Source: Sedimentisphaerales bacterium (lineage in GTDB: Bacteria > Planctomycetota > Phycisphaerae > Sedimentisphaerales > SM23-30). Taken from it: a DNA stretch of 64,000 nt. The translations under genes and the position numbers were made by a program. Below are positions 26,694 to 31,045 of the stretch, one piece after another; positions within the stretch are counted from its first letter, which is position 1, and every line of letters begins with the position of its first letter. The stretch lies in the NCBI GenBank assembly GCA_963666285.1, contig OY762711.1; one strand, written 5' to 3'. The notes beneath the pieces were generated by a model. It had not been told where the DNA came from, did not search any database, and saw only the letters and a program-made list of their open reading frames with translations.

Positions 26694-27945
26694 TTAATAA
26701 TCTACTCTAAATTTGACTTCTTGTTTTGTCTTAGGAATTGTTACTGGAATACCTATCGATATAGATATCGAAGTACCAGTTTCTTCATGTACGATAGTAC
26801 CAGAAGAATTATATCTTAAATCTAAATCTCCGTCAGTAATAAAAACACCTAAAGACTTACAGTTAGGGTTAGATGATTTATATGGCATTGCTCCTGGGAT
26901 TTGATCTGGATTATCATATGGTTGTTTACAACAATAAAATTCTCTTTTAATTAGTTTCGCTCTATATTCCACAGTTGTCTGTATTCCCATAAATATATAT
27001 GTTGTGTTTTCATTTATTTTGATTTTGACACCTTTATTCTCTATAGTTCCCCCTTTTGTAGCTGTGATAACTGTATTATTTAAAATAGGCGAATAAGTAC
27101 CTATTGGGTGATAAGGAGTTATCTGAGTTCCACGTGGAACTGATTTTATATTTTTAAAACATCTTTTACATGCTTTTTGCTTTTCTGCAATAGCTTGAGC
27201 TTGTTGCCTAAGTAAATTGTTTAGGTTATTCGATTCCTTATAAATCCTTTTAGAAATCTCAAGCATGTCTTTGTCTGTAAAGCTTGGAGTATATCCCCAT
27301 TTAACATCAGAGACAGGTCTATCATCTTCTTCCTGCCCCGAGGCATACGAATCTAATCCATATATATCAACAAATACTATAACTTTTGATTTTACATATT
27401 CATAAAGATTTAAACCATCAGCATAACCTGAAGGATCATTGGTCATCCATCTACCCAATCGGTAATGATATACACGGTGGCGGTTATGCTGTAATCTCAA
27501 ATCACCATCATCTAGATTATCAACCTCTCTTGCCGTGAACATAAACGGATTGGCAACAGCTGAATTATCAATCTCATTTCCGCTGCCATCATATATCGTC
27601 GGTTCGCCCCAGACATCGTAAGCATACCGTTCGACCACATCACCATCGGCATCAACCAGAGCGACAATTGAGCCGAGGTTGTCAGAGCAGTAGGTAATAT
27701 ACTGCTGAATTGGGATCACCTGAGGTTGTATTATACATCATCACCAGCTCGTCAATTCCATCTCCAAATACAGATTCCTGTTCCAGGTCAGCTTCTGAGG
27801 CATTATCAGTTGCCGCATAAACCACCTGCCATCTATCATTATGATAATATCGAACAATTTTGTCAACATCTTCATTTTCATCATAGAAAACTGCCAAAAT
27901 CCGTCTGCCAAGGGCATCATATTCATATTCATATTCAACCAGCAA
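26694..27945 (-). pseudogene. Orphan Rhs-core/toxin module, 5'-truncated and frameshifted near 27690
   Basis: YEYDALGRR and FGDGIDE in one frame. After a 1-nt shift: DNLGSIVAL, YAYDVWGEP, NPFMFTARE, GRWMTNDPSGYADGLNLYEYV and DIYGL (DPxGL variant), followed by an AT-rich C-terminal domain. Confidence 0.85.
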
Positions 27946-27953
27946 AGAGAACT

Positions 27954-28250
27954 AAAAGGGGTACGTCCCTTTTTCTTTATCCGCGCCCATCAGCAGGATT
28001 TAGCGGACAATATTTTTTCGTTCTTTTCGACACCTTCACTTTTCGGCTACGGTCGAAAAGTGCCTGAGTACGAAGCACGTATTTCCTGGCAGCTGACCGC
28101 TGGTAGCTGGTCGCTATTTCGCTGTTTTCTGCCTACCGTGTTTGTCTGTGCCTGTCCGTGACCGTCAGTGCTATATTCCACAATAACACTTTGCGAGCCT
28201 TGCGGCCTCTGCGAGCAACAGTTTTTTTTCGTGTTCTTTCGTGAATTTCG
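27954..28250. repeat. Field of REP-like hairpins and short-period repeats (left of IS)
   Basis: AAAAGGGGTACGTCCCTTTT, CACTTTTCGGCTACGGTCGAAAAGTG, three (T)TTCGTG copies, three TGCG(A/G) copies and CCGTG-type repeats. Confidence 0.7.
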
Positions 28251-28322
28251 TGAAAATATGAAGAAAAGGCATCCTAAGGTATAATATATACCAAAACAAA
28301 CTTTTATACGAAAGGATGCCTC

Positions 28323-29354
28323 ATGAACAACATACATTATATTGGAACAGATTTGCATAGCAACAATATTGAGCTGGCAATTCGTTACAGGCAGAAGGTA
28401 ATCCAGAGATATTCTCTGCCGACATCGTTGCCTCCTGTTTTGGAGGTTATAAGCTCCATCAAAGGCAAAAAACAGATGGCAGTAGAGGAAGGCCCCATGG
28501 CAGGCTGGCTTTATCGCGGCGTATTTGGCAAAGTTGACAGGTTTGTAATCGCAGAACCTCGCCGTAACAAGCTGATAAGCTCAGAAGGCGATCATGATGA
28601 TGAAATTGATTCTGCAAAACTTGCAATGCTGCTGGAAGGAGGCCTTTTGAAGGAAGTTTATCATCCTCTAAATAGAGAGCAAGCGGTATTTAAAAAGTGG
28701 GTAACTCTTTACCATGACAATGTTAAGGATGCAGTAAGAAGTATTAACAAAATCAGAGCCTGTTGTCGTATGGAAGCCATAAGAATACCCAGATATGTAA
28801 TAAAAAACCCTGACAAACGTGACAAATGGCTTTCGGAGCTTGAATATACAGACATTGCCGAGCAATTAATGTTGCTGCTTATCGGCTACGATGCAGCTTC
28901 CTGCCAGTGTAGACTTGCCAGGCAAAAAATCATGACTCTAAGTAAATCTTATCCGGTAATTAAGCAATTTCAGGAGCTGCCCGGAGTTGGCATAATACGA
29001 GCAGTAACCTTCTTGGCATATATCGATACGCCATGGAGGTTTAAGAAAAAAAGTCAATTATGGAAATATTGCGGCATTGGACTTGAACGTACAACCAGCG
29101 GCAAAGACAAATATGGCAACTCAAAACCGGCAAAACTTAAATTGCCTTACAACTGTAATCGCACTCTTAAAAATGTAATAATTGGTGCCGCTTTAAGTGC
29201 TATCAGGCAAAAGAATAGTACATATGCCCAGGATTATGAAAGGATGATCTCAAATGGTGTAAATAGATCAAATGCTCGCCATACCGTTGCCAGGAAAATA
29301 CTGACAACTATGTGGGGGATTTGGAAAAGCAGCTTTCAGTATAATACGGATTAA
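28323..29354 (+). CDS. IS110-family DEDD transposase/recombinase
   Basis: YIGTDLH, VEEG, HDDEID, LPGVGIIRA, RFKKKSQLWKYCG and TSGK (catalytic Ser motif), VARKI. Confidence 0.95.
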   Translation: MNNIHYIGTDLHSNNIELAIRYRQKVIQRYSLPTSLPPVLEVISSIKGKKQMAVEEGPMAGWLYRGVFGKVDRFVIAEPRRNKLISSEGDHDDEIDSAKLAMLLEGGLLKEVYHPLNREQAVFKKWVTLYHDNVKDAVRSINKIRACCRMEAIRIPRYVIKNPDKRDKWLSELEYTDIAEQLMLLLIGYDAASCQCRLARQKIMTLSKSYPVIKQFQELPGVGIIRAVTFLAYIDTPWRFKKKSQLWKYCGIGLERTTSGKDKYGNSKPAKLKLPYNCNRTLKNVIIGAALSAIRQKNSTYAQDYERMISNGVNRSNARHTVARKILTTMWGIWKSSFQYNTD

Positions 29355-29411
29355 GATATCGTAATTTATACTCTTTCAAAATATTATGATTTTCTAATAG
29401 TCTTTTTGCAT

Positions 29412-29552
29412 AACAGCAAAGAGTTCCGTTTCAACCACTGGACAGGCAAGAACTTGAACCCGATTCGTGAATGAACCTTTGCTTTTAGACGTGCCTCTTT
29501 TCTTTTTATGAACTGCCCAAAGGGCATGTTCCCAATAGATGGTTGGCAGCAT
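29412..29552 (+). ncRNA. Putative bridge RNA/seekRNA of the IS1111-type element
   Basis: Two stem-loops with internal-loop guides matching the reconstructed target (TCAACCAC 29431-38, TTCGTG 29464-69) and the donor junction (TTTTTAT 29503-09, ATAGATG 29535-41). Boundaries approximate. Confidence 0.75.
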
Positions 29553-29789
29553 AATTTAATTTACGGCTATACACAATTTTATAAAAGAATTGACCGAACA
29601 GAAAATTGTAGTTATTGAAAAAATCGCAAAATTACAAAAAAGATATCTATGACATGTACCTGCTGATGCAATAACTTACAACAAACGTATGGATGCCCTC
29701 AAAGTAATTCATTCGAATTAGAAATTTTTTAACTTGACTTTGAGTTCTTCATAGATGGTTGACAATCTTTATCATAATTCTGAATTTAA

Positions 29790-30660
29790 ATATGCGACAG
29801 CTTTAAAGTCGTGAGCGACAGCGAATTATTCCTGATGTCAACGTACATCAGGACACCTCCTTTACACCTTTTATTTTACCCTTTACACTTTGATGCCGTT
29901 TCACGGCACCTGTCTGGTAGGTCCACTCTTCCAGAATAACAACTTACAAAAATACCCGCAAAATCCCCAGCCCGCCGCACTACCACCACAAGCCACCATA
30001 CAGTCGTTCTTATATCCCCTCACCCTTCAATTTCATTCCATTTTTTAACCCATCCTTCACCCCGTCACTCTCACTTATAAATCAATCATCCTCGCCAAAC
30101 CCGTTACCTTCCCTAATACCAAATACCCAACACCTAATACCTTCCTTCACCCCTGAAAACGCTGAGCACAAGCTCGGCACATTATTTAAACAGGTCGCGA
30201 CAGCGACACCTCCACATCATTGGACTTGTCCAATGATGTGCCAGAGTGCGCAGCACGTATTTCCTCTTCACTGACAGCTCGCCGCTGATAGCTCGTTGCT
30301 ATTTCGCTGCTCATCTGTTCTAATCTCTAACGACCTTCCGTCGCTCGGCGTTAGCCGCTTTAAACAAGCCGTCCGCGAAGCGGACACCTCAACTCTTACC
30401 TCTTACCTCTTACTTATTACCTACATTCGCGTCTCCGCTCCGTCCCCGTGTTTGGGCTTTCGCACCCATTCAACGTTCCGCCGTATACTGTCCGCGGCCC
30501 GCAATTCGCCCCCGTTCAAATCCATTTGCCTTTTCACCGCCGTCCACCCGCCGCGCTGCCCCGTTACCTTTCCGCACACCGTCCGTTACCCATTAATTAG
30601 TCGTCGCGAAGCGACACCGCAATTCTTCACTCTTCACTCATCGTTCTTCACTTGATTTTT
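29790..30660. repeat. Field of REP-like hairpins and heptamer repeats (right of IS)
   Basis: GTCGC-GAA/GACA-GCGAC-ACC units; CACATCATTGGAC-TT-GTCCAATGATGTG; TCTTACC, TCTTCAC, TTTACAC and CTAATAC tandem heptamers. Confidence 0.7.
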
Positions 30661-31045
30661 TCTTTGAAAAAATCATCTCGTTTTTACAACCACCAAATCG
30701 CGAAAATCTAAAATCTTCCAAAATTGTTATCCCACTTATCCCCAACACTTTACAAACTTTCAAGCCAACCATCCCACCCAAAAAATCAGCGCACTTTCGA
30801 CATACCGTCCAATAGTAGAGAGCCGACAAAAAAAGAGACCCAATAAAAATCAGCTCTTTATAAAACTTAACAACGACGAAAACTTCGTCTTAAATATAAA
30901 CAACGCTCAATAAAAACTGAATATTTGAATACAGACCTAGCAAATCAGAATGATTTGCCCTCTAGAATTGACAATCTCAATTCGTCTCCGCAAGAGCTCG
31001 ACTGCTAAAACCTAGTCCAGACTATGTCTGGTTGCCAACCTCTCG

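Follow-up and report, generated by a model that had tools for sequence, protein, structure and literature searches.

An IS1111-type insertion sequence from a Sedimentisphaerales bacterium whose right end very probably encodes a two-loop bridge RNA

Introduction

The closest described systems to the element considered here are the IS1111-group elements guided by seekRNAs (ISEc11, ISKpn4, ISPa11 and ISPst6; PMC11187229) and the IS110-group elements IS621 and ISCro4 guided by bridge RNAs (PMC11208160, PMC11208158). Those of the IS1111 group are reported to encode recombinases of 330–350 amino acids (aa), to carry subterminal inverted repeats, a short left and a long right end and an RNA downstream of the gene in which the match to the top strand lies 5′ of the match to the bottom strand, and to insert into a specific repeated host sequence (PMC11187229); their subterminal repeats are given as 7–17 base pairs (bp) with no terminal inverted repeats, and their RNA is placed in the right end (PMC11208160). 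We describe here a locus at positions 28253–29757 of a 64,000-nucleotide stretch of DNA from a Sedimentisphaerales bacterium (contig OY762711.1; the whole stretch is called the window throughout), which is very probably an intact IS1111-type element of the IS110 family whose right end encodes a two-loop bridge RNA, or long seekRNA, on the + strand. The original prediction for this window had proposed such an RNA, with target guides, donor guides and handshake bases, and the analysis reported here follows it up.

When set against the IS1111 group, the locus shares the size of the recombinase, the subterminal inverted repeats (of 9 bp, within the published range), the short left and long right ends, an RNA placed after the gene, the order in which the two strands are matched and the insertion into a specific repeated host sequence. 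The assignment to this group, which the original prediction had also made, is one of element organisation, through the repeats, the ends, the position of the RNA and the order of strand matches, whereas the protein is very distant from those of the described elements, its serine motif lacks a proline and its NCBIfam score stays below the cutoff. The likeness to IS621 and ISCro4 (PMC11208160, PMC11208158) lies in the fold of the protein and in the plan of the RNA, with two loops that each read both DNA strands about a core of 2 bases; additionally, a match to the partner DNA is seen at the base of the 3′ guide that adjoins the core, like that of the handshake guide reported at position 7 of IS621 (PMC11208158). 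Unlike in these elements, the RNA is here in the right end and not the left, the order of the guides relative to the gene strand is reversed, the core is TG and not CT, the subterminal repeats are of 9 bp rather than 2–3 bp, and the proteins are 14–18% identical. According to Durrant and colleagues, 93.0% of the ISfinder IS1111 elements have a predicted bridge RNA (PMC11208160), so that one is to be expected in this element.

The element is a well-documented example from a divergent branch, and it brings no new mechanism and adds nothing to the principle. Bridge RNA and seekRNA recombinases are under development as programmable tools that insert, excise or invert DNA without double-strand breaks. 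The locus provides a compact system (343 aa, an RNA of about 135 nucleotides (nt) and a TG core) from a branch far from those that have been studied, together with a natural data set of 60 aligned RNAs whose guide words (20 on the left, 26 on the right) can be compared to their real targets. For the IS1111 layout, this set allows rules to be derived on how long the guides are, which mismatches they tolerate and where the handshake lies.

Results and Discussion

The element is present in three near-identical copies

The element is delimited by the following features.

28253..29757, + strand: insertion sequence of 1505 bp, including the right copy of the TG core; three genomic copies with different flanks
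28251..28252, + strand: left copy of the TG core (putative crossover dinucleotide); TG is the sole sequence common to both junctions
29756..29757, + strand: right copy of the TG core, on the same basis as the left core
28257..28265, + strand: left subterminal inverted repeat TATGAAGAA, 9 bp, the reverse complement of 29745–29753
29745..29753, + strand: right subterminal inverted repeat TTCTTCATA, on the same basis as the left repeat

The left junction reads AATTTCG-TG/AAAATATG and the right junction CATAGA-TG/GTTGACA. A search of the element's own genome with positions 28200–29800 found, besides many short matches to the flanks, three full copies at C1:3804253, C1:5397364 and C1:6012049, with 1505, 1504 and 1504 of 1505 bases identical to the window copy, and the one base in which copies differ lies in the gene (window position 29013). 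The three copies have different flanks (...GAATTTCGTG on the left and GTTGACAATC... on the right of copy 1, ...TTTATTCGTG and GTTTAGCTC... for copy 2, and ...CTTCATTCGTG and again GTTTAGCTC... for copy 3) and fix the borders independently. The flanks of copy 1 are part of a repeated host sequence, and common to all three copies is (A/T)TTCG-TG-GTT(G/T)A. At uninterrupted paralogous sites in the genome, for instance C1:4648787–4648839 with 4648838–4648882 and further ones near 918226, 714180 and 158851, both flanks abut with an overlap of two bases, which fixes the borders at 28253 and 29757 and the TG core. The core and the borders, from which the original prediction had derived the target (by removing the element) and the donor (by circularising it), are established by the three copies and these uninterrupted sites.

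From the three insertions and the empty sites, insertion is site-specific and leaves no duplication beyond the shared core, as in the IS1111 group. The genome has 19 occurrences of the uninterrupted word TTCGTGGTT(G/T)A, while the full match to the guide described below (12-base ATTCGTGGTTGA; 13-base ATTCGTGGTTGAA, at C1:5988620) is found once and is unoccupied. Each 9-bp inverted repeat starts four bases in from the end of the element, and its two arms vary jointly in 46 of 46 homolog loci (TATGAAGA in 39, TATGAAAA in 5 and TATGCAGA in 2, with none discordant). The non-coding ends are of 70 nt on the left (28253–28322) and 403 nt on the right (29355–29757), and homologous elements are 1489–1609 bp long.

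Contigs from three DNA runs were placed on 27900–30100, where the contig of the element (28247–29760) lies at about three times the depth of the flanks. Contigs that skip the 1505 bases are also present; since the genome itself has uninterrupted paralogous sites, they are no evidence of excision. The element is complete and recently active, belongs to the known IS110/IS1111 kind, and explains three insertions into a family of repeated intergenic sequences.

A two-loop structure is conserved downstream of the gene

In the right non-coding end the proposed RNA is laid out as follows.

29415..29548, + strand: probable bridge RNA, about 135 nt with two loops
29415..29483, + strand: loop 1, target-binding, with an outer stem of 29415–29426 (AGCAAAGAGTTC) and 29473–29483 (GAACCTTTGCT) and an inner hairpin at about 29440–29461
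29492..29548, + strand: loop 2, donor-binding, with an outer stem of TGCC (29492–29495) and GGCA (29545–29548) and an inner hairpin at 29510–29531

Homologous loci were collected by a metagenome scan with an alignment (80 loci) and a scan of a genome collection with a single protein (one locus, L030), and a few more came from the genomes of relatives. In 66 homolog loci nhmmer finds a stretch like the window RNA at the same distance after the gene, and the RNA alignment holds 59 homologs and the window (60 rows), with six duplicates of identical RNA and one locus cut by a contig end (L086) left out. The RNAalifold consensus of these 60 rows is the two-loop structure with 30 pairs, 19 of which show at least one compensatory double change. 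Paired cells amount to 97.2%, compared to 84.9% in column shuffles, none of 500 of which reached the observed value, and to 31.8–46.7% when the partners are slid by 1–3 columns, and there are 213 double-change cells compared to 62.5 in the shuffles. All four helices contribute: helices 1 and 2 of loop 1 are paired in 98.3% and 92.5% of cells, with compensatory changes at 5 and 6 pairs, and helices 3 and 4 of loop 2 in 99.6% and 98.3%, with such changes at 2 and 6 pairs. The structure of the RNA is demonstrated by this covariation. The minimum-energy fold of 29400–29560 likewise consists of two internal loops closed by stems, and together with the compensatory pairs it bears out the two-loop RNA of the original prediction.

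The G-U pairs, which make up 122 of 1793 cells, would be A-C on the opposite strand, so the RNA is read from the + strand, the same as the gene. When the genome is searched with a covariance model built from the alignment there are exactly three hits, one per copy and of 117.1 bits each, with no orphan copies. The strings on which the original prediction relied (the loop 1 stems, the guides, TTCGTG, TTTTTAT, ATAGATG and TGCC/GGCA) are all found at the positions it gave. One detail has to be corrected, namely the inner hairpin of loop 1, which had been given as CAAG-AA-CTTG; this would leave a loop of 2 nt, and the predicted fold is GG / CAGG-CAAGAA-CUUG / CC.

Guides in loop 1 follow the flanks of each element

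The two guides of the target-binding loop are these.

29431..29438, + strand: target 5′ guide TCAACCAC (UCAACCAC), pairing with the top strand G-TG-GTTGA (core and right flank)
29463..29469, + strand: target 3′ guide (A)UUCG-UG, equal to the top strand (left flank and core) and pairing with the bottom strand

For the homologs, guides were taken as the four loop segments of the alignment, and the ends of the elements were located by means of the aligned regions upstream of the genes and a conserved word at the right end. When compared to the real left flank in 53 loci, the 3′ guide matches at positions −5 to −1 in 89, 100, 92, 91 and 100% of cases, and at −6 in 15%. On the right, where 49 loci were compared, the real flank is matched by the reverse complement of the 5′ guide at positions +1 to +7 in 92, 96, 78, 78, 69, 57 and 27%. 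Summed over positions, the matches number 258 on the left, with 20 distinct guide words, compared to 160.8 (standard deviation (sd) 8.5) in permutations, and 243 on the right, with 26 distinct guide words, compared to 131.7 (sd 9.6); on either side 0 of 10000 permutations was as good, counts that overstate independence because the loci are related. That the guides of homologs should covary with their flanking targets had been put forward as a check of the original prediction, and they do so on both sides. It is these many distinct guide words, each fitting its own flank, that carry the argument for guiding.

In this genome the guide reads ATTCG-TG-GTTGA, of which copy 1 matches TTCG-TG-GTTGA, and copies 2 and 3 match ATTCG-TG-GTT followed by one mismatch and then A. 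Since each of the three copies deviates once from the guide, one mismatch on the one side or the other is tolerated. The TG is present in both 3′ guides (target and donor) of all 60 RNAs, and CA in the target 5′ guides of 52 of the 60.

Guides in loop 2 follow the joined ends of the element

The donor-binding loop carries a corresponding pair of guides.

29503..29509, + strand: donor 5′ guide UUUU-UA-U, pairing with A-TG-AAAA of the circle junction, with a U-G wobble at the core
29535..29541, + strand: donor 3′ guide AUAGA-UG, equal to the last bases of the right end and the core (CATAGA-TG)

The pairing of the donor 5′ guide with ATGAAAA through one U-G wobble is as had been claimed, and the wobble is common to the three nearest relatives of the window (L030, L031 and L033); the core of this guide is CA in 54 of the 60 RNAs and UA in 4. 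All 4 loci with a UUUUUAU guide have the left end AAAATA, and all 51 with a guide of the UCUGCAU type have AAGATA, such that the guide base opposite position 3 of the left end changes along with that end. On the other side, the window alone has ATAGATG, in the guide and in the right end alike, and the other 49 loci have ATAGGTG in both. The right ends of the homologs were located by a motif that contains the guide word, which makes the agreement of guide and end in 50 of 50 loci partly circular, and for this reason only the change of G to A on both sides in the window is independent evidence. The donor loop thus matches both strands of the joined ends, with guide and end changing together at two positions and few independent events. 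The guide pairs with 4–5 bases past the core, and relatives have two copies of the word TGAAGA, one at the junction and one 6 bases further in. A register at the inner TGAAGA was considered and dropped, since in the subclade of the window it is the junction that has changed along with the guide, the inner copy having stayed as it was.

It could be argued from these data that only loop 1 guides, in the manner of a short seekRNA, and that loop 2 is a scaffold whose matches have no function, the ends being recognised by the protein through the subterminal repeats. The donor guides are indeed near-constant (59 of 60 have ATAGGTG, and of the 55 loci whose left end was located 48 have TCTGCAT), their covariation comes down to about two events, the subterminal repeats covary by themselves, and short seekRNAs of 82–96 nt are reported to co-purify with IS1111-type transposases (PMC11187229, PMC13604230). 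We nevertheless regard this account as quite unlikely, because the right end of the window and its donor 3′ guide share the G-to-A change at the same position and only there, because the two types of left end keep strictly to their own types of guide (4 of 4 and 51 of 51), and because the arrangement of loop 1, including the position of the TG and CA cores, recurs in loop 2. Donor-binding loops have also been reported from experiment for IS621 (PMC11208160). A bridge RNA in which both loops guide is accordingly the reading that we carry forward.

Bases after the 3′ guides

Two short segments directly follow the 3′ guides.

29470..29471, + strand: AA after the target 3′ guide, candidate handshake bases, equal to the first two bases of the left end
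29542..29544, + strand: GUU after the donor 3′ guide, candidate handshake bases, equal to the first bases of the target right flank

For IS621 it is reported that, in either loop, the two bases that follow the core of the 3′ guide pair with the partner DNA after the first strand exchange (PMC11208158), while pairing of the handshake bases with the cognate DNA blocks the reaction, and in IS621 orthologues a covariation signal is found at the base adjoining the core (PMC11208158, PMC13626964). In the window the bases after the 3′ guides, AA and GUU(G), equal the partner DNA (left end AAAA and right flank GTTG), the fourth base after the donor guide, G, being part of the closing stem. Across the homologs, the first base after the donor guide equals the right-flank +1 base in 40 of 49 loci, compared to a permuted mean of 22.4 (sd 2.8; 0 of 10000 permutations as high), and it equals the cognate donor base in 0 of 55. 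The second position gives no signal (16 of 49, permuted 17.2) and the third is an invariant U. AA follows the target guide in 58 of the 60 RNAs, and all 55 loci have a left end beginning with AA; both are invariant, so that no covariation signal is possible there. The handshake of the original prediction therefore has covariation behind it at the first base after the donor guide, finds no signal at positions 2 and 3 and is consistent with the AA. One handshake base is thus supported by the homologs, with the remainder of GTTG a match in this element only, and the base after each 3′ guide may act as a handshake base. In the accounts cited here handshake guides are described for IS621 only (PMC11208158, PMC11208160, PMC13604230, PMC13626964). 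A literature search found no paper treating them in IS1111-type RNAs, though the extended-data figures of PMC11208160 may do so, and guide maps for IS1111-type RNAs may already stand in the supplements or figures of the cited papers.

The recombinase resembles IS621 in fold

A single gene fills most of the element.

28323..29354, + strand: recombinase gene, 343 aa; Pfam PF02371, E 4.7e-10

The AlphaFold model of the protein, made with 32 relatives, has a mean predicted local distance difference test (pLDDT) score of 84.6, and its top fold match is IS621 chain 8wt9_A from a bridge-RNA synaptic complex (E 7e-14, template modelling score (TM) 0.69/0.74, 16% identity). The synaptic complexes of IS621 and ISCro4 are the best fold matches (TM 0.64–0.74, 14–18% identity), with TIGR-TasR lower. 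In the 32-sequence alignment D10, E55, E56, D93, D96, S259 and G260 are invariant, and the recombinase keeps every family-invariant position in an open reading frame. The catalytic residues of IS621 are given as D11, E60, D102, D105 and S241 (PMC11208158), and from their order and the D-x-x-D spacing D10, E55/56, D93, D96 and S259 are probably the counterparts. The IS621 fold match over the whole length, PF02371 and the invariant residues together point to a DEDD RuvC-like N-terminal domain followed by a C-terminal catalytic-serine domain.

At the level of sequence the matches to solved structures are weak (E 0.0036 and 0.026, the latter being IS621), and a profile search gives E 0.0013. In its serine motif, G-I-G-L-x4-S-G, the protein lacks the proline that belongs to the published pattern GL-P----S(t)G (PMC11187229). 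There are 1349 relatives at E ≤ 0.001, the best 120 of which are 56–92% identical and nearly all metagenomic. Plasmid-borne IS110-family matches, 12 among the matches listed, are 22.6–26.3% identical, and all 212 matching records are below 60%; the database names of these matches say only 'IS110 family'. The lineage had been described as probably little sampled, which holds for its distance from named or characterised elements but not for its abundance, as the clade is common in metagenomes.

We also considered the TIGR-Tas nucleases (TasR and TasH), to which there is a weak C-terminal likeness (NCBIfam 40.9 bits; 9mty_A, E 3.6e-8, TM 0.60/0.70). Membership was rejected, since the match is weaker than that to IS621; moreover the element, unlike those systems, is mobile, with ends, copies and a core, and is without a tandem guide array.

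Proposed mechanism and alternatives

The mechanism that we propose builds on the borders and copies of the element, the structure of its RNA, the guides that track flanks and ends and the IS621-like fold of its protein, as described above, whereas transcription of the RNA, its binding by the protein, the circular intermediate and the strand exchange at the core are taken over from work on IS621, ISEc11 and related elements. Loop 1 would read the target ATTCG-TG-GTTGA on both strands, with the 5′ guide on the top strand (core and right flank) and the 3′ guide on the bottom strand. Both strands of the donor junction in the circle (...ATAGA-TG-AAAA...) would likewise be read by loop 2. With the RNA bound, the DEDD/serine recombinase of 343 aa would hold donor and target side by side and carry out the exchange of strands at the TG core, giving the two junctions seen in the window. 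That the element is intact and programmable is suggested by its near-identical copies, the invariant catalytic positions and the 20 left and 26 right guide words among the homologs.

In a loop of IS621 the top strand (left half and core) is repeated by the 5′ guide, and its complement (for core and right half) stands in the 3′ guide, ahead of the handshake bases. The element described here has it the other way about, with the complement of the top strand in the 5′ guide and the top strand itself in the 3′ guide, ahead of the candidate handshake bases. When the DNA is turned round, with the bottom strand read as the top, the layout would become that of IS621 and the RNA-bearing end would take the place of the IS621 left end, from which it is predicted that the first strand to be exchanged is the bottom one, with strands named after the direction of the recombinase gene. 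Such a turned-round layout agrees with the order of strand matches, which is reported to be reversed between the families (PMC11187229), and with the RNA lying in the right end of IS1111 elements (PMC11208160). It could extend to the whole clade, and perhaps to IS1111-type elements generally, that a handshake base follows the bottom-strand guide, that the synapse is turned round relative to the gene with the bottom strand exchanged first, and that the clade is specialised on the last unit of repeat arrays of about 10 bp; we put this forward tentatively, and with slightly more doubt than belief.

Several observations weigh against the bridge RNA reading, in addition to the relatedness of the loci and the partly circular location of right ends mentioned above. 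A search for sequencing runs that contain the stretch listed no RNA run. The single-sequence fold of 29400–29560 has a z-score of only −1.65, which is weak (the two halves folded apart give −2.17 and −2.33), and the proof of the RNA structure is for this reason comparative. No Rfam family was matched at E ≤ 1 in 27900–30100, barring a chance match to mir-234, nor at the gathering score across the window. A promoter and terminator scan of 28150–29850 found 3 promoter-like sites compared to 5.1 expected, none of them positioned to drive the RNA, and no sigma-70-like promoter before it. The donor 5′ guide is short, with 4 bases and a wobble core, and some loci fit their flanks poorly (L030 and L042 with 2 of 6 on the left; L047 and L064 with 2 of 7 on the right). 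As for the protein, Pfam PF01548 (N-terminal DEDD) was not reported at E ≤ 0.001, though most relatives carry it, and the NCBIfam model 'IS110 family RNA-guided transposase' gives 95.2 bits, under its cutoff of 140.

A different possibility is that gene and RNA look whole and that the element is nonetheless a recent fossil, immobile in this host. There are only three copies, the perfect 13-base site at C1:5988620 is empty, the donor 5′ guide carries its U-G wobble at the core, and the base of the loop 1 inner hairpin is weaker than in relatives (lone G-A and A-A cells, at alignment pairs 52-77 and 53-75, are read as the row of the window). With the three copies differing by one base in 1505, however, the frame open, every family-invariant position kept and the wobble found also in the nearest relatives L030, L031 and L033, we consider this very unlikely, and an intact element as the far better description. 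It is extremely improbable that the stretch acts merely as DNA, its matches being internal recombinase-binding or pseudo-end sites or leftovers of a duplicated junction, as might be thought from the identity of 29535–29545 (ATAGATGGTTG) to the right junction 29751–29761 and of 29464–29471 to the left junction, with the transcript a prediction from sequence, since the flank-specific parts vary with the flank of each homolog, which a fixed protein site cannot explain, and since four helices keep their pairing through compensatory changes with G-U on one strand only, a mark of RNA.

Ends, host repeats and surroundings of the element

Some further features of the two ends were observed. At the left end a hairpin is predicted at 28267–28321, in which AGGCAUCCU pairs with AGGAUGCCU and encloses an inner stem (−19.1 kcal/mol, z −5.9, 0 of 200 shuffles), and its 3′ arm covers the AAAGGA just ahead of the start codon. 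The hairpin may hide the ribosome-binding site, and its pairing seems to be kept in homologs. The Rfam match to mir-234 falls on this hairpin and was set aside as a chance match. At the right end two blocks are conserved in 50 aligned elements, GGATGCCCTCAAA (29691–29703) and CTTGACTTTGAG (29732–29743), the first of which complements the GGCATCC word of the left end and so forms a second, inner inverted repeat. The second block holds TTGACT, 19 bases from the right end, which could be a candidate −35 element of a promoter formed when the circle closes. The formation of a promoter in this way has been reported for other members of the family.

In one run, from another sample of the same study (X3), the element is present with a gap at 29196–29435, and the contigs diverge from the window before 28274 and after 29732, which points to a variant or a differently placed copy.

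Each insertion has as its left flank the final unit of an array of short direct repeats of about 10 bp (28226–28252 in the window), for example TTTTCGTG TTCTTTCGTG AATTTCGTG. Three TTNGTG words at this spacing are found 19 times in the genome, two of these being at the other copies of the element, compared to 0 in the reversed sequence. They are mostly followed by GTT or GTA, and a gene shortly downstream is rare. Among the metagenomic homologs, those with differing guides (L034, L041, L047, L050, L055, L057, L074 and others) sit at similar arrays of their own word. After the arrays at C1:5988601 and C1:516401 the same 427-aa reading frame lies 161 and 754 bases on, and the first of these arrays holds the perfect unoccupied site.

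The element sits in about 1.6 kb without long reading frames (27960–28250 and 29758–31045), made of repeated modules. These include short GC hairpins after TTTAAA words, for instance at 29795–29822, 30186–30210, 30361–30392 and 30597–30620, and two similar stretches of about 60 bases (28065–28130 and 30245–30310). In the DNA runs the contig depth over 29824–29897 is about 50–60 times that of its neighbours, which indicates that part of the surrounding stretch is highly repeated. Upstream of the element lies a reading frame of 341 aa on the − strand (26694–27719), the middle of which contains ...DPSGYADGLNLYEYV..., a stretch that looks typical of the end of an Rhs/YD-repeat core with a variable tip after it.

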